A stretch of 46,959 nucleotides of DNA from the UHGV virus genome UHGV-1362024; one strand, written 5' to 3'. The notes under the pieces were generated by a model that ran no database searches, was not told the DNA's origin, and was given only the letters and a program-made list of their open reading frames with translations. Below, piece by piece: positions 12,365 through 46,334 of this stretch (within the stretch, counting starts at the first letter, position 1; every line of letters begins with the position of its first letter). Made by a program: the position numbers and the translations under genes. Source of the stretch: a virus.

Positions 12365-12390
12365 ACCCCCTTTCGGGGGTTTTTTTATTA
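12363..12390. terminator. Bidirectional rho-independent terminator (AAACCCCCTTTCGGGGGTTTTTTT)
   Basis: Perfect hairpin flanked by an A-run and a T-run between converging genes. Confidence 0.75.
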
Positions 12391-13140
12391 CGTAACGGTA
12401 ACAATACACTTGGTGGAGTCAACGTAATCAGGACTGGTTGCCGAATCCATCACGCGGCAGAAGTACGTGCCAGCATCACCTGCGGCAGCAGTGGTCTTGG
12501 TGAACGTGTTGGTAGTAGCACTGCTGATCGGCGAAGTGCCTTTATACCATTGGTAGGTATAAGGCTCGACACCGCCAGCCGCAACTACCGGACCGAGCGT
12601 CAGAGTGCTGCCAGTAGCAACGGTTTTGGCTTCACTGATATCAGTAGTCAGCGTCAAATCTTCGATGCTTGACACGTCAACTGTAGAGCCATCATATGGC
12701 TTGAATTCAACTGAGCCGGTGATAATGTCGTTGGTGCCGCCATCGTAGCTCAGAGCGGTAATGTTGCAGTAGGCAACAACAACGGTATTACCGGTGGTCT
12801 GACGCACCCACAGCGAAGGCTGACGACGAGCTTTTACTTCGGTGACAAAGTATTTGATGAGGTTATGTACGCCATACTCATCAGCCTTATCAGCCTTGCG
12901 AACCTCAAAATCACCAGAAATGGTGAGGTCTGCGGTAGTGACCAGCGTCGCAACAAAGCCATCGCCATCATCAGCCTCTGAGGTAGTGGTGCTTGGGCTG
13001 AAGTCGACGCCTTTTGAGGTCATTGGAGCAAAAAACTTCCAATCTTCCTCTGCTGGTACAGCATCCCAGCAGCCATCAGCCAGCTCGATGAGCGACTGGC
13101 GACCTGTGATGATGCCGTTATCATTTGCACAAATAGCCAT
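12388..13140 (-). CDS. Major tail protein with C-terminal Ig-like (Big_2-like) domain
   Basis: 250-aa ORF with strong RBS AGAGAGGA. C-terminus YQWYKGTSPISSATTNTFTK...GTYFCRV is Ig-like, as in lambda gpV-type tail tube proteins. Confidence 0.7.
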   Translation of the reverse strand: MAICANDNGIITGRQSLIELADGCWDAVPAEEDWKFFAPMTSKGVDFSPSTTTSEADDGDGFVATLVTTADLTISGDFEVRKADKADEYGVHNLIKYFVTEVKARRQPSLWVRQTTGNTVVVAYCNITALSYDGGTNDIITGSVEFKPYDGSTVDVSSIEDLTLTTDISEAKTVATGSTLTLGPVVAAGGVEPYTYQWYKGTSPISSATTNTFTKTTAAAGDAGTYFCRVMDSATSPDYVDSTKCIVTVT

Positions 13141-13174
13141 GTTTAGAATCCTCTCTGTTTAGCTAAACAATCGC

Positions 13175-13183
13175 ATTATATCA
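13175..13183 (-). promoter_or_regulatory. Extended -10 promoter (TGATATAAT on minus strand) for the major tail gene
   Basis: The minus strand reads gtcaacaTGATATAATgcg 35 nt upstream of the ATG. Confidence 0.5.
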
Positions 13184-13185
13184 TG

Positions 13186-13214
13186 TTGACAGGTTTTGAT
13201 TGGTGGTGTAGATT
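13186..13214 (+). promoter_or_regulatory. Sigma70-type promoter TTGACA-17-TAGATT driving the structured-RNA/tRNA unit
   Basis: TTGACAggttttgattggtggtgTAGATT, back-to-back with the minus-strand extended -10 element. Confidence 0.5.
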
Positions 13215-13285
13215 TAACTTGCTGGTCGCAGAATGCAGGAAGATTGACAGGTGGCATTCGGATTTACTGTTAATTTGAGACGCCA

Positions 13286-13900
13286 GCAACTATCAGGTAA
13301 GAGCGCTGTTAAGTAGCTTCAGGGGACATCCCCGCACAGGTGACGACTTATGCGCAAAAGTAGATGTGGTAAGGCTTAAAGCGCTCTTTCCGATAGTTTT
13401 CGTGGCGACTTTGCGGGTTTTTAGAAACTGACCACAAAGATAAATGCAAACGAAGAAATGTATCTGGCAGTAGCCTAACGGCTAAACACCAGCAAGGCCT
13501 TCCGACTCCTTGTCAATGAATTCGGCGCACTGGCCCGGTGTGATTAATAATGGGCACACAACAGGTAAGAGCATTGGGTTAGCGCAGCAGAGCAACCGTT
13601 AAAGTAGAGTCATAATCGAAAAGACGATTCTGTTTGGTCGATGCAATGAGTGCTCTTTCCGTTGTGGTGAATGCGCAGGCTGATGCGATGGTTTAGGGTG
13701 GGCGGTTTCCCATGCCTTTCCGGACTCGAGCGGAAAAACCGATTCACTAAGGGTAGGCAACGCCAGAGAACAGCACCGGCCACCACAACAAGACCAGACG
13801 ATATATGAGTGTCTTAAAAAACAGATGGGAGCCGGTGGAATCCCGGCACACAACAGGTAAATCAATTTACCACCTTTGAGTTGTACGATTCATGTGGTTA
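13286..13900 (+). repeat. Array of three diverged 270-285 bp direct-repeat units, each starting near ACAGGTAA(G)AGC and containing a roughly 95-nt imperfect palindrome (AAGAGC...GCTCTT); candidate structured ncRNAs
   Basis: Unit anchors at 13293, 13562 and 13846. Long-range inverted repeats are AAGAGCGCTGTTAAG...CTTAAAGCGCTCTT and AAGAGCATTG...CAATGAGTGCTCTT. The AAGTAGA motif recurs. No credible ORF is present. Confidence 0.3.
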
Positions 13901-13919
13901 AGTGAGTTGGTTTATCGTT

Positions 13920-14047
13920 GTGGTGAAGCTCAACGGCGAGCTAGGGAATAGTTTTGCGGTGAAGATTCCGGATAAGTAACCGCAGGATGCGCGTAACCCA
14001 ATCAGCAGCGCACTGATGGAAGGTGGTTCGACTCCACTCACCACAAC
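13920..14047 (+). ncRNA. tRNA-like element (about 126 nt): perfect 7-bp acceptor stem TGTGGTG/CACCACA, D-arm GCTC/GAGC, T-arm GGTGG-TTCGACT-CCACT, with an oversized central region
   Basis: Hand-folded; no canonical anticodon arm identified. Possibly a degenerate tRNA or stable RNA. Confidence 0.25.
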
Positions 14048-14052
14048 ACAAC

Positions 14053-14129
14053 GCACCATTAGCTCATCAGGATAGAGCAATTGCCTTCTAAGCAATCGGT
14101 AACTGGTTCGAATCCAGTATGGTGCACCA
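14053..14129 (+). tRNA. tRNA-Arg (anticodon TCT), CCA encoded
   Basis: Manual cloverleaf. Acceptor GCACCAT/ATGGTGC (7 WC pairs), D-stem GCTC/GAGC, anticodon stem ATTGC/GCAAT with loop CTTCTAA, T-arm ACTGG-TTCGAAT-CCAGT, discriminator A. Confidence 0.8.
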
Positions 14130-14132
14130 AAT

Positions 14133-14209
14133 TCCCGTTTAGCTTAACTGGTTAAAGCACCCGACTCATAATCGGATGATTACAGGTTCGAATCCTGTCG
14201 CGGGAACCA
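14133..14209 (+). tRNA. tRNA-Met (anticodon CAT), CCA encoded; two stem mismatches
   Basis: Acceptor TCCCGTT/CGCGGGA (one GU, one mismatch), D-stem GCTT/AAGC, anticodon loop CTCATAA, T-arm ACAGG-TTCGAAT-CCTGT. Confidence 0.55.
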
Positions 14210-14593
14210 TCACTCACCAAAAACAACCCTCAGCAACAATTCATAAACAGGCCTTTTCTCTGTCGTAAGCGTAGGGCGGCCAAGCGGCGCCTGCAACTGA
14301 ATCATTCCAATACGACTATCAACTGGATGCTCTTTGATGTATGCGATGACATCAAGCGCTTTTGCCTTTGTTTCTTCGATGTTGTACTGGCCCTGCTGGC
14401 CGACAACATAGAGCGAAAAATAATAATCATTGCTGAGGTCTTTGCTTACGTTCGTGCCGCCATTGGATTGCAGCACCATAAACCGATCTGTGCCAACTTC
14501 GGTATCGTTCCAGAACTCAAGCTGAGAAGTCCACCCATCATAAAGACCGGCATCGCTAAGGTACTGGTCAACAAGCTCAAGCATATCTCTCAT
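14210..14593 (-). CDS. Putative neck / tail terminator-type protein
   Basis: 127-aa ORF in the head-tail joining block; assignment by position only. Confidence 0.35.
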   Translation of the reverse strand: MRDMLELVDQYLSDAGLYDGWTSQLEFWNDTEVGTDRFMVLQSNGGTNVSKDLSNDYYFSLYVVGQQGQYNIEETKAKALDVIAYIKEHPVDSRIGMIQLQAPLGRPTLTTEKRPVYELLLRVVFGE

Positions 14594-15006
14594 TTTAGCG
14601 TCATCTCTTTTTTAATTACCTGATCGACAAGTTCGCGTGTGTTTTCGCCAGCCTTGAGAAGGAATTTAGGCTCGCCGCTTTTATCCCACACGTTACCCTT
14701 TCCTTTGAGCCGTCCTGTGCGCGGCGTATTCGTGCCAAGCAATTTACCTGGTGCATTATGGACATACAGGGCGTAATTAGCGGAATACCCAATCTTGCCA
14801 GTTATGCGAGTGCCATTAACCTCAACGGTGTCATACTGGCTGTTTATCAGCGTTGACGTGGCTACTGGCGTCATGGAGGCCGATTCAGTCCTGATGATGT
14901 AGTTGGCGGCTTTTATTGCTGATACCGCCTTCTCGCCAGTAATCTCGCCGACTATCTGCTGGGTGCGCTTAATCGCCTGCTGGATACCTCGCATTTTGGC
15001 GGCCAT
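14590..15006 (-). CDS. Putative head-tail joining protein (HK97 gp10-like size and position)
   Basis: 138-aa ORF, translationally coupled to its neighbours. Confidence 0.35.
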   Translation of the reverse strand: MAAKMRGIQQAIKRTQQIVGEITGEKAVSAIKAANYIIRTESASMTPVATSTLINSQYDTVEVNGTRITGKIGYSANYALYVHNAPGKLLGTNTPRTGRLKGKGNVWDKSGEPKFLLKAGENTRELVDQVIKKEMTLK

Positions 15007-44471: not shown

Positions 44472-46334
44472 ATGAAATATACGCTAAGGCCATACCAGCA
44501 GGAAGCGGTTGACGCGGCTATGGCACATATCAGAAGCACAATTTCATCATGCGTAATAATTCTCCCTACTGGCGCAGGCAAGTCAATGGTTGTCGCTGAG
44601 CTTGCAGCACGCATCTATGAGATGAGTAAAAAGCGTGTGCTTTGCATTGCTCCAACCGGGGAACTTGTGACACAGAATCGATCTAAATACCTTTTAACTG
44701 GCGAGCCAGCAAGCATGTTCAGCGCCAAGGCTGGCCCTAAAAATCTGCGCCACCCTGTTGTTTTTGGCTCTCCTGTCACAATCAAAAACTCTATTGAAAT
44801 GTTCGGCGATAAATATGGAGCTGTAATTATTGACGAGTGCGACGGAATCACGCCAACCATTAAATTTATTATTAATGAGATGAGGCGTCGCAACCCAAAG
44901 CTGCGCATCATTGGCATGACCGCAACGCCTTATCGCCTTGGTACGGGGTACATATTTAAAGATCATTACCAGTCCGGCCCCACTGATGAAGAGACAGCCA
45001 TTGATCCTTACTATGACAAGGTTGTTTATGAGCTTGAGGCAAAATTCCTGATTGATAATGGCTATCTGACTCCTCCAGTTACTGAGCACGTAGAAGAAGA
45101 ATATGATACCTCTGGACTTGAGAAGGATAAGCTTGGGCGTTATACAACGGCATCGGTAGAGCGCGCCATGGTTGGAAAAGGACGCAAGACGTCTCGCATT
45201 GTTGAGGATATCGTCAGGCGATCAGTGAATCGCCGGGGAACTATGATTTTCGCCAGCACGAAAAAGCATGCCATGGAGATTATGGAATCTCTGCCTCCTG
45301 GTAGTTATAGCTATGTTTTCGGTGATATGCCTACTGCTGAGCGCAATAAGGCGATATCAGATTTTAAGGCGCAGAAGGTTAAATACATTGTCAACCAGAA
45401 TATCCTTACGGTTGGCGTCGATGTGCCACATTGCGATCATATTGCTGTAATGCGCGCCACAGAGTCGCCGCGCCTGTATCAGCAGATAATAGGTCGTGGA
45501 ACCAGGCTATACGAAGGTAAGGAAAACTTTCTCGTTAGCGACTATGCAGGAAACATAGAGCGTCATTTTGCTGAGACAGGAGACCTGTTTACTCCTGAGA
45601 TTAAAGCAACACGAAAAAAACCATCTGTTCCAATGGAAGTAAAATGCCCATCGTGCGGATTTGTTAATGAATTTGGAGTGCGTCCAAATCCAGAAGGCCT
45701 TGAGATGGACAGTGAGGGATATTGGCTTGATCTATCTGGTGACAGAATAATGGTAGAAATTTATGATAAATCTGGCGAAAAGATAGGGCAAAAGCCAATG
45801 CCCGGACACTTTGGGCGCCGCTGTAAGAACTATATTATGGTTGGTGCGCTGCGTGAAATGCGTCGCTGCACGTATAAATGGTCATTCAAAGAGTGCCCTG
45901 ATTGTGGTTTTGAAAATGATATTGCTGCTCGTAACTGCGTGAGCTGCAAAGCAGAAATTATTGATCCAAACAAGAAGCTACAGGAAGAGGCTGCAAGACT
46001 TGATGCTGCGCCAGATGCAACCAAGCAATCAAAAGTTACAATGATGAGCATAACTCGCCACTATGTAAGCAGTGGTGATGATATGTTGGTAGTTAAGTTT
46101 GCTATTGAGCAGTCGCCATGGTTCGTTAACAAATTCTTTAAACCCATGGCAGAAAAGACGTGGCAAAGAAGAGAATGGGAAGACTTCAGTATTAAATCTT
46201 TTGGAGAGGTACTGGAAATAGATGAAGCACTATCTAGAAGAGAAGATGCCACACATCCTACTGCCATTATGTTCAGAAAGGATAAAGGCAGCAAATATTA
46301 CAATGTGAAAGGAATGTATTGGGGTGAGTTATGA
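44472..46334 (+). CDS. Superfamily II DEAD/DEAH-type helicase with C-terminal zinc-ribbon region
   Basis: Motif I LPTGAGKS, motif II IIDECD, arginine-finger-type QQIIGRGTR, C-terminal CPSCG...CPDCG...CVSCK. RBS CGAGAGGACA. Confidence 0.85.
   Translation: MKYTLRPYQQEAVDAAMAHIRSTISSCVIILPTGAGKSMVVAELAARIYEMSKKRVLCIAPTGELVTQNRSKYLLTGEPASMFSAKAGPKNLRHPVVFGSPVTIKNSIEMFGDKYGAVIIDECDGITPTIKFIINEMRRRNPKLRIIGMTATPYRLGTGYIFKDHYQSGPTDEETAIDPYYDKVVYELEAKFLIDNGYLTPPVTEHVEEEYDTSGLEKDKLGRYTTASVERAMVGKGRKTSRIVEDIVRRSVNRRGTMIFASTKKHAMEIMESLPPGSYSYVFGDMPTAERNKAISDFKAQKVKYIVNQNILTVGVDVPHCDHIAVMRATESPRLYQQIIGRGTRLYEGKENFLVSDYAGNIERHFAETGDLFTPEIKATRKKPSVPMEVKCPSCGFVNEFGVRPNPEGLEMDSEGYWLDLSGDRIMVEIYDKSGEKIGQKPMPGHFGRRCKNYIMVGALREMRRCTYKWSFKECPDCGFENDIAARNCVSCKAEIIDPNKKLQEEAARLDAAPDATKQSKVTMMSITRHYVSSGDDMLVVKFAIEQSPWFVNKFFKPMAEKTWQRREWEDFSIKSFGEVLEIDEALSRREDATHPTAIMFRKDKGSKYYNVKGMYWGEL

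Follow-up and report, generated by a model that had tools for sequence, protein, structure and literature searches.

The question raised by this locus is what is encoded in a long stretch without genes that lies among the tail genes of a siphophage genome. The stretch of DNA analysed, called the window below, comprises 46,959 nt of the virus genome UHGV-1362024. A preliminary description of it had reported a gap free of open reading frames (ORFs) between the neck genes and the major tail gene, and such a gap, 1,069 bp long, is indeed present at 13141–14209: it is flanked by minus-strand genes and contains no credible ORF, the mechanically called ORFs inside it all being short (≤88 amino acids). 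The most conserved component of the gap, at 13395–13555 on the plus strand, lies between the units 1 and 2 of that description and had been overlooked there. This component is very probably a real, conserved RNA resembling transfer-messenger RNA (tmRNA). Judged from its sequence, the phage RNA appears to be made of a 5' antisense domain of ~42 nt and a tmRNA-derived message module, with no tRNA-like domain of its own. The best explanation, to which we give an even chance, is that the RNA anneals to the tmRNA of the host and replaces its template, or at least blocks tagging.

The tmRNA-like module is tmRNA-derived and carries at 13446–13478 (plus strand) the tag frame GCA AAC GAA GAA AUG UAU CUG GCA GUA GCC UAA, which specifies ANEEMYLAVA followed by a stop; the SsrA tag of Escherichia coli, for comparison, is ANDENYALAA. 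The sub-threshold Rfam matches in the gap were solely to tmRNA models and fell on the tag, at 13436–13486, and the same was found in L035 (the loci compared are referred to by their L numbers). The frame is preceded by the linker AAGAUAAAU (13437–13445, plus strand), which is nearly invariant in the alignment. Comparison of sequence and structure showed that the context AUAAAU in front of the resume codon places U at −5 and A at −4, as are U85 and A86 of E. coli ssrA. Published tmRNA genetics has shown that U85 and A86 of E. coli tmRNA are functionally important.

The conservation of the tag frame was computed on phages and prophages, which yielded 22 distinct nucleotide versions, each consisting of 10 codons and a stop; UAA, UGA and UAG were all found as the stop, at the same site. 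The variable sites are distributed over the three codon positions as 5/5/9, the third varying most, and for each of eight tag peptides there are two or three synonymous nucleotide versions. The tags begin with AN(D/E) and end with a hydrophobic residue followed by A-x-A. Two other readings of this sequence as protein-coding were rejected: a +1-frame ORF starting with AUG (MQTKKCIWQ*), whose length is not conserved, which is absent in L006 and which has no Shine-Dalgarno sequence, and a conventional ORF in the frame of the tag, which has no start codon and is closed off by an in-frame UAG 24 nt upstream.

The remainder of the module is structured, as computed from covariation. The tag frame runs into a P5-like hairpin (13464–13492, plus strand; CUGG..CCAG and UAGCC..GGCUA), the loop of which holds the stop codon, and 5 of the 9 pairs of its two helices (helices 1 and 2) are changed on both sides. 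It is followed by the pseudoknot PK2 (13493–13525, plus strand), in which the stem CAAGG/CCUUG bears the loop CCGA that pairs with the downstream UCGG; its helices 3 and 4 are paired in 98% and changed on both sides at 6 of 9 pairs (e.g., CCGA/UCGG, CCAG/CUGG, CCAA/UUGG, CUAG/CUAG). In the pseudoknot PK3 (13526–13555, plus strand), CGCAC pairs with GUGUG in the loop of the hairpin GCCC..GGGC. The PK3 loop sequence UGAUUAAUAA is invariant, and helices 5 and 6 occur as the variants CGCAC/GUGUG, CGUAC/GUAUG, GGAGU/ACUCU, CAGAC/GUCUG, CGCAU/AUGUG and CGCAG/CUGUG. Taken together, the 27 pairs of P5, PK2 and PK3 were paired in 91.6% of the cells of a 35-sequence alignment versus 27–44% when the 3' partners were slid; 17 of these pairs change on both sides, and the observed values were reached by none of 500 shuffles. 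No PK1, PK4 or P2 was found in the module, and a scan of the whole alignment for covarying helices remained blank for the 5' region. The segment GAAUUCGG was considered as a P2a-like helix partner of the 5' domain and rejected, as covariation pairs UCGG with the PK2 loop.

The 5' domain, AGUUUUCGUGGCGACUUUGCGGGUUUUUAGAAACUGACCACA (13395–13436, plus strand), is complementary to nt 54–106 of E. coli tmRNA, a segment that covers PK1, the linker, the resume codon GCA and codons 1–5. Searched with an nhmmer profile of the module, E. coli ssrA gave a minus-strand match besides a sense match at the tag. The domain, AGUUUUCGUC..GUUAGCGACU..UUUGCGG.CUUUUUA, is the reverse complement of tmRNA nt 105–68, and the target stretch reads UAAAAAG-CCGCAAA-(AAAU)-AGUCGCAAAC-GACGAAAACU. 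The energy computed with RNAduplex for the window copy was −40.5 kcal/mol at tmRNA 54–106 (z −4.3). The optimum lay at tmRNA 54–106 (main type) or 76/79–106 (Felix-type and L043/L149-type) for 22 out of 24 distinct variants, and main-type energies ranged from −35 to −48 kcal/mol, with z down to −5.9. When five sequence types were aligned locally to the reverse complement of ssrA, all of them started at nt 105, and 0–13 of 2000 dinucleotide shuffles reached the score.

The computed complementarity is itself conserved. Pairing of the antisense blocks to tmRNA is found in 93% of cells, AGUUUUCG is invariant (34/34 sequences counted), and the parts of tmRNA opposite the invariant blocks are single-stranded, namely the linker and the tag start. 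Different sub-blocks are kept by different lineages, namely CUAUUUUU by the Felix-type and L149-type and the PK1 antisense by the main type. Phage codons 3–5 have diverged from the host GAC GAA AAC, and thus the antisense domain matches the RNA of the host and not the phage's own frame. The predicted dimer, with PK1 left out of the model, has −178.4 kcal/mol versus −164.9 for the two monomers and is thus 13.5 kcal/mol more stable. By computation, the module therefore shows what is expected of an antisense RNA: extended, conserved complementarity to a defined and accessible target site. On these sequence comparisons, the module probably acts by pairing with host tmRNA. The other modules of the window, compared with tmRNA in the same way, gave nothing specific, and 30-nt windows elsewhere reach similar energies. 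A search for a Pseudomonas-type analogue (antisense of GCCAACGACGACAACU) in viral contigs returned only genuine tmRNA genes and coding regions.

No tRNA-like domain belonging to the module was found. Neither in the window nor in 29 family loci did ARAGORN call a standard or a permuted tmRNA; it called 26 tmRNAs (24 of them permuted) in other, unrelated IMG/VR viral contigs that came from the same scan. The Rfam scores were 21.2 bits for RF04321 and 11.7 bits for RF00023 against a gathering score of 47, and in L035 15.6 bits for beta_tmRNA against 84. The T-loop motif occurs in the window only at 14025, 14105 and 14185, in no case joined to the module, and the tRNA-like modules beside the core vary between phages and have neither G3:U70 nor CCA. 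Moreover, in L001, L002, L004 and L237 the promoter lies 4–8 nt before the conserved 5' motif, so that there is no room for a 5' acceptor strand. Because no tRNA-like domain was found, the module falls outside the tmRNA family, which is defined by that domain. We also considered AGUUUUCGU as an analogue of the D loop, with the acceptor strands in the flanking helices (the X' and X strands, CACAAC/GUUGUG), and rejected this arrangement: a T arm, G3:U70 or CCA that would fit it is missing, and the motif proved to be exactly antisense to the host tag.

In the mechanism that we propose, transcription of the RNA would start at a promoter of its own or, in lambdoid prophages, at the late promoter, and cleavage at the flanking hairpins and tRNA-like modules would free it from the tRNA-cluster transcript. 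The 5' domain would nucleate on the exposed linker and tag start of tmRNA and, in the main type, would zip on through PK1, and the annealing would hide the host resume codon. The phage strand would leave the duplex next to the PK1 site and present AUAAAU|GCA 9–16 nt further on; the distance from the duplex end or PK1 to the phage resume codon is 9–16 nt, and the PK1–resume distance of the host is 11 nt. Ribosomes rescued by Ala-tmRNA/SmpB would then read A-ANEEMYLAVA rather than ANDENYALAA. As a minimum effect, the pairing would block host tagging. In this scheme, pairing in vivo, processing at the places proposed and translation of the phage frame are what we infer. Taken together, the geometry, a conservation of the frame that is of the coding type and the missing tRNA-like domain favour re-templating. 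That the phage tag does replace the host tag, in a hybrid two-piece tmRNA which would join the Ala-tmRNA/SmpB rescue of the host to a phage-specified tag, is proposed tentatively, with a likelihood somewhat below even. The benefit to the phage could be an altered handling by SspB/ClpXP, or a rescue kept up when the host message is damaged or disadvantageous.

Several points weigh against this mechanism. The whole case is computational, and it presupposes that ribosomes can use a message which is annealed to tmRNA in trans. For the target stretch, E. coli ssrA was the only sequence compared; the segment is presumably identical in Klebsiella and Salmonella, and because the target thus appears invariant, host-specific covariation, which would be the strongest test, is not possible. 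Of the non-consensus cells within the antisense blocks, 49 retain pairing and 47 disrupt it. The A-rich region of tmRNA is bound fairly well by U-rich shuffles, too (means of −21 to −37 kcal/mol), so the z-scores are moderate, and in L050 and L088 the energy optimum lies elsewhere on E. coli tmRNA. The main-type duplex needs PK1 to be opened, and in the window the first nucleotides of the antisense domain lie in the stem of the neighbouring hairpin module 1, from which processing would have to release them. Some of the sequences were collected by patterns fixing codons 1–3, and the apparent conservation of these codons is therefore inflated; frame length and stop codon lie outside the selection patterns, and L003–L006, which were found by BLAST, show the same features. 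Finally, as tags such as ..LAVA, ..LMAA and ..LAAA resemble ordinary degrons, the gain from a tag swap is not evident. A host tmRNA with GCU AAC, which would remove the A·A mismatch, was also searched for, and the single match was a protein-coding region.

The main rival of the proposed mechanism is an RNA that is only an antisense inhibitor, masking the resume codon or triggering cleavage by RNase III, while frame and pseudoknots serve, untranslated, only as a scaffold or decoy, e.g., for binding of S1 or the ribosome. The complementarity speaks for such an inhibitor in the same way as for re-templating, and synthetic antisense oligonucleotides directed at the same site are standard suppressors of tmRNA-mediated release in cell-free reactions. 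To our knowledge, there is also no mechanism by which a message annealed in trans is read. The inhibitor fits the complementarity and not the preserved frame and stop: it leaves unexplained the constant 10 codons, the stop site occupied by UAA, UGA or UAG and the changes at third positions, as well as the −5U/−4A context and the conserved spacing from the duplex to the resume codon. We therefore regard an inhibitor without a message as unlikely.

The module is widespread. It matched 767 of 50,697 phage records, all of them with Enterobacterales hosts, and 137 of 5,426 complete E. coli genomes at ≥80% coverage, and it is never annotated as an RNA. The distant BLAST matches showed that the block 13395–13555, unlike its neighbours, occurs in unrelated phage groups: Ackermannviridae (UPM2146, a Kuttervirus), Ounavirinae (SUSP2), Schitoviridae (UE-M3), P1 and lambdoid prophages. 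Chi-like, Felix-O1-like and Vi1-like phages are among the carriers, and in lambdoid prophages the module sits between the gene of the Q antiterminator and the holin gene. In a loose-pattern scan of genome contigs, the matches listed were mostly due to chance and at least seven were real members, including L149, L171, L173, L174, L178 (Rosenbergiella, Pseudocitrobacter, Rouxiella, Erwinia) and L237. P1 (L252 1184–1371) carries a full copy between the dmt methylase gene and the tRNA genes, with the tag ANDDLMMVAA and variant PK2 and PK3 resembling those of N4-like phages. About 650 E. coli plasmid records match the module partially, and their sizes of ~90–110 kb suggest that they may be P1-like phage-plasmids. 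That the module is a functionless, decaying remnant of a captured tmRNA, or recombination debris of a mosaic tRNA cassette, is very unlikely: the region is mosaic (30–59% of 1,070 nt shared with the closest relatives) and some copies, e.g., L041 and L095, look truncated, but intact copies of the module are kept across 767 records and no fewer than six phage groups unrelated to one another, with compensatory changes in its helices, a preserved frame and stop and an invariant 5' motif.

Around this core, sequence comparison shows the gap to be a string of independent RNA modules shuffled among phages, and relatives share 30–59% of it, in blocks. The preliminary description had seen here three diverged repeat units of 270–285 bp. 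The repeated strands GGCACACAACAGGTAA and GCTCTTTCCG(TTGTGGTGAA) were recovered by a repeat search (families D1, D4, D7, I7, I9 and I12), but the stem strands alone recur, and the intervening sequence of each unit has no relation to that of the others. All three of the long-range stems do fold as had been described. Hairpin module 1, the unit 1 of that description (13288–13398, plus strand; stem AACUAUCAGGUAAGAGCGCU / AGCGCUCUUUCCGAUAGUU with an interior of ~70 nt), has a minimum free energy (MFE) of −43.5 kcal/mol and z −3.9; hairpin module 2, its unit 2 (13557–13666, plus strand; stem CACAACAGGUAAGAGCA / UGCUCUUUCCGUUGUG), an MFE of −36.7 kcal/mol and z −2.6; and hairpin module 3, the start of its unit 3 (13849–13922, plus strand; stem CACAACAGGUAAAUCAA / UUGGUUUAUCGUUGUG), an MFE of −31.1 kcal/mol and z −4.5. 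Rather than being cores of units, these hairpins are conserved stems around hypervariable interiors, and the same stems are found in the late leader of lambda.

Hairpin module 1 is an insertion relative to L001 and L002, and its interior is homologous to a module of L103; in KP591P1 and ZCKP8, the same promoter is followed immediately by the block equivalent to 13395–13560 of the window. The stem of module 2 encloses unrelated interiors in L001, L002, L003, L004, lambda (L129) and P1 (L252), and the lower parts of the stems covary across modules (CACAAC/GUUGUG, AACUAUC/GAUAGUU, GAAACUGG/CCAGUUUU). The flanking hairpins look like boundary or processing elements. In lambda (NC_001416 ~44787–44941; L129 488–642), the same conserved hairpin, CACAACAGGTAAGAGCATTGAG...CCAGTGCTCTTTCCGTTGTG, is located just after the 6S/tR' terminator in the late leader and is followed by an element closed by GUUGUGCUG...CAGCACAAC (also given as GTTGTGCTG...CAGCACAAC); lambda has no tmRNA-like module, and its record annotates nothing at L129 488–642. 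The 5' strand of the hairpin modules (CACAACAGGUAAGAGCA) has a likeness in ACCACAAAGAUAAAUGCA, the segment that directly precedes the resume codon of the phage, and 13431–13444 is 93% complementary to 13911–13924 (repeat pair I4) and 13431–13448 72% complementary to 13651–13668 (repeat pair I3). This complementarity of the pre-resume segment to hairpin 3' strands could reflect a common origin or a masking of the resume region in the precursor.

Downstream of hairpin module 2 lies the cloverleaf-like Element B (13661–13789, plus strand), with a 9-bp closing stem GUUGUGGUG/CACCACAAC, which is conserved in at least nine phages and prophages. It consists of a D-like hairpin (loop GGCUGA), a variable middle and a T-like hairpin, the loop of which is ACAGC in the window and UCAGC in relatives and is complementary to the D-like loop. 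Compensatory changes are found in its stems (GCGCA/UGCGC to GCGUA/UACGC, GCCGG/CCGGC to GUCGG/CCGAC and, in lambda, GUG/CAC to CUG/CAG); the window copy folds with a z of only −1.1. The Element B of L035 matched the prophage RNA family STnc100 (RF02076) with 20.1 bits (E 0.09), below the gathering score of 47, and the Rfam search of the window copy gave no STnc100 match at E≤10. The likeness to STnc100 is confined to the closing helix, the first hairpin and, in prophages, the terminator. A small conserved module at 13794–13847 (plus strand) ends in the hairpin GCCGG-UGGAAUC-CCGGC and is 87% identical to L005 1768–1826; this counterpart of ~55 nt with a T-arm-like end hairpin is placed after tRNA-Cys in the N4-like phage UE-M3. 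By its sequence, 13794–13847 seems to be another exchangeable RNA module.

The tRNA-like element reported in the third unit was confirmed as well. It occupies 13917–14047 (plus strand; fold z −2.1) and has an acceptor-like stem of 9–10 bp, a D arm GCUC/GAGC, a middle of ~75 nt and a canonical T arm GGUUCGACUCC with the T-loop motif GGTTCGACTCC; CCA and G3:U70 are absent. Both this element and Element B were rejected as tRNAs by ARAGORN and Rfam. Its homologues occur, unannotated, in E. coli prophages (≤92.6% identity) and in other phages. In E. coli, this element and the other pieces are found, unannotated, only in subsets of genomes and are not core genes. In prophage-type contigs, a conserved element between modules (L035 5190–5224 and L025 1907–1951, both minus strand) ends in ...GCUGGGUUGAUCUCCAGCCGUCAGCUCCACGA, which resembles the T arm and 3' acceptor strand of E. 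coli tmRNA (CAGCUCCAC) but has CGA for CCA; no matching 5' strand was seen there.

The preliminary description had interpreted the region as a small family of stable RNAs, possibly derived from tRNA or processed from one precursor. Co-transcribed with the tRNAs and with no specific link to tmRNA, they might in that case act as processing scaffolds that aid tRNA maturation or as decoys for host nucleases directed at tRNA. Much of the region is in keeping with this. It is a plus-strand, non-coding, structured cluster together with tRNAs, its modules are conserved, and several are tRNA-shaped: the element at 13917–14047, Element B and the T-arm hairpin interiors in L001, L035, L098 and P1. The modules always lie in or beside tRNA clusters, and the interior of unit 2 contains a copy of a CAU anticodon arm (repeat family D11): GAGTCATAATCG at 13607–13618, conserved with the interior that carries it in L090, is a near copy of the anticodon stem-loop of the CAU tRNA at 14163–14174 (GACTCATAATCG). 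The small family of paralogous RNAs that had been suggested did not hold, as each piece has its own homologues in other phages. When homologues were compared, modules were found conserved in related and unrelated phages, but the region is a mosaic and not one unit. A tRNA-derived origin may suit the other modules; for the RNA of 13395–13555 it is improbable, since it leaves the tag frame there unexplained, and likewise the pseudoknots and the 40–50 nt of tmRNA complementarity.

Another alternative is a self-sufficient two-piece tmRNA, in which a phage-encoded tRNA-like acceptor would be held to the message by a helix CACAACAGGUAAGAGC / GCUCUUUCCGUUGUG after excision of a loop. The candidate acceptor pieces would be Element B, the element at 13917–14047 and the T-arm hairpin module. 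The tRNA-like modules usually lie ≤100–150 nt downstream, connected via a helix of ~17–20 bp with a hypervariable loop, which resembles the excised loop of permuted tmRNA genes, and permuted tmRNAs do occur on viral contigs. ARAGORN called the 24 permuted tmRNAs at IMG/VR loci within L011–L120 (e.g., L017 7154–7563, L045 309–788 and L110 3485–3882), with tags including ANDERFLMAA, ANDNAFLMAA and ANESVYRLAA, and AUAAAUGCAAACGA precedes the resume codon both in them and in the phage module. This shared sequence may point to the evolutionary source of the module. The Felix-O1-like L092 (2116–2197) and L102 (1894–1975) carry, directly after the module and its hairpin, an 82-nt tRNA-like RNA that was not called by ARAGORN. 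G3:U70 in an acceptor stem of 7 bp, A73 and an encoded CCA give this RNA the identity set for alanine; its anticodon arm has UCU (Arg), its variable region is long and a D arm is absent.

This next gene of the Felix-like phages would suit a two-piece tmRNA, but the tRNA-like modules of the window all lack both G3:U70 and an encoded CCA. Nor is the partner conserved: SUSP2 and L118 have an ordinary tRNA-Arg(UCU) in the same slot, and L041, L095 and L171 have nothing. In addition, the helix would join the acceptor end and not the P2 entry point of tmRNA, and the invariant anti-tmRNA motif would stay unexplained. A phage-encoded acceptor is therefore quite improbable, and we return to the host tmRNA as the partner of the module.

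The gap itself is set between the gene of the major tail protein (phrog_853; 12388–13140, minus strand) and a phrog_782 gene (14210–14593, minus strand), which is followed by the tail completion/Neck1 gene (14590–15006, minus strand). The closest relatives of the window genome are the Klebsiella phages of the ZCKP8/KP591P1/VLCpiS13 group, placed in one paper among the Chi-like Casjensviridae (PMC12827599). A consensus scan confirmed the sigma-70-type promoter reported before, TTGACA-17-TAGATT at 13186–13214 (plus strand), with 10 of 12 consensus positions. Its hexamers are kept in four relatives (L001, L002, L103 and L237) with differing spacers, and the predicted transcript start of these lies just 4–8 nt upstream of AGUUUUCGU. 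Both canonical tRNAs reported at the end of the gap were accepted by ARAGORN and by the Rfam tRNA model (RF00005): tRNA-Arg(UCU) at 14053–14129 (plus strand) with 67.3 bits and a tRNA with the anticodon CAU, called Met, at 14133–14209 (plus strand) with 60.4 bits. In E. coli, the latter matched only three genomes, at 82–87% identity, where it is annotated as tRNA-Ile, and on its sequence it may be a lysidine-modified tRNA-Ile2 reading AUA. A comparable tRNA-Ile2 of the lysidine type is ileZ of the phages that carry Shiga toxin genes (Stx phages). The tRNA-Arg(UCU) recurs beside the module in prophages, e.g., in Rosenbergiella (L149), where it is likewise followed by a CAU tRNA.

Compared with known systems, the phage module shares with tmRNA (SsrA, 10Sa RNA; RF00023 and clan CL00001) the Ala resume codon GCA in an A/U-rich context with −5U/−4A, tags starting with AND or ANE and ending with a hydrophobic residue and A-x-A, and a P5-type hairpin that has the stop codon in its loop and H-type pseudoknots after it. 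Unlike tmRNA, it is only ~165 nt long, has no acceptor stem, G3:U70, T arm, CCA or recognisable PK1 and PK4, and carries a 5' domain antisense to the host's own tmRNA. Two-piece tmRNAs (alpha-proteobacteria, cyanobacteria and some phages; RF04321 and its clan) likewise have the message on a separate RNA and function via pairing between RNAs, and the pre-resume AUAAAUGCAAACGA is also that of the permuted tmRNAs on viral contigs. In contrast to them, the proposed partner is the complete one-piece tmRNA of the host, pairing would take place at the linker, tag start and PK1 and not at the acceptor stem and P2, and the acceptor piece is not encoded with the module. The synthetic anti-ssrA oligonucleotide used in ribosome display and cell-free translation, 5'-TTAAGCTGCTAAAGCGTAGTTTTCGTCGTTTGCGACTA-3', is antisense to the same stretch of tmRNA, contains AGTTTTCGTCGTTTGCGACTA and shares AGTTTTCGTC..GTT.GCGACT with the phage RNA. 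The oligonucleotide is an artificial DNA with no action but blocking, whereas the phage RNA occurs in nature, reaches into PK1 and carries its own tag frame.

Small structured RNAs are also known from enterobacterial phages and prophages. STnc100/PasD and the RNAs AgvB and AsxR of enterohaemorrhagic E. coli (EHEC) are encoded in the same late-leader neighbourhood of lambdoid prophages, and the anti-sRNAs (RNAs directed against small RNAs) AgvB and AsxR act by pairing with host non-coding RNA. The targets of these prophage RNAs are mRNAs or Hfq-dependent small RNAs and not tmRNA, and they have neither a tag frame nor pseudoknots. The stable RNAs of the phage T4 tRNA cluster (species 1 and 2, or bands C and D) are small, structured and co-transcribed and processed with tRNAs; we know of no tmRNA-like features in species 1 and 2. 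Phage genes that act on trans-translation have been described as complete tmRNAs in the mycobacteriophage Bxz1 group and Bacillus phage G and as a bare tRNA-like domain in DS6A (PMC4131195). Unlike the module, which is called by neither program, these full tmRNAs or bare domains can be detected by ARAGORN or Rfam. When the 543 genomes of bacterial viruses that RefSeq contained at the time were searched exhaustively in 2014, mycobacteriophages were reported as the only ones with ssrA (PMC4131195). In the searchable literature, we found no natural anti-tmRNA and no tmRNA-like RNA of enterobacterial phages, including Casjensviridae, Ackermannviridae and Felixounavirus, but only mentions of annotation pipelines and synthetic oligonucleotides. 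The combination of an antisense handle to host tmRNA with a replacement message is present in none of the nearest known systems.

The finding has consequences for how these genomes are read. Hundreds of them are blank or have spurious small ORFs over the element, and what is taken for non-coding filler in phage tRNA clusters would consist of exchangeable RNA modules bounded by conserved helices. The carriers include well-studied and therapeutically used phages as well as prophages of the EHEC type, and P1 and the lambdoid prophages are systems in which the mechanism is readily testable. For re-programming tmRNA tags in trans, the coupling of a message module to a short antisense handle could also serve as a design principle. 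Trans-translation is the main bacterial pathway of ribosome rescue and nascent-chain quality control, and it influences phage growth. A widespread phage RNA that targets tmRNA would, if true, be a new kind of host take-over, and a re-programming RNA would be sitting unannotated in P1, Felix-O1-like, Vi1-like and Chi-like phages and in the lambdoid prophages of pathogenic E. coli. If the phage tag is in fact used, a functional tmRNA would be made from two genomes, and this would be the first natural trans-acting re-programming of trans-translation.

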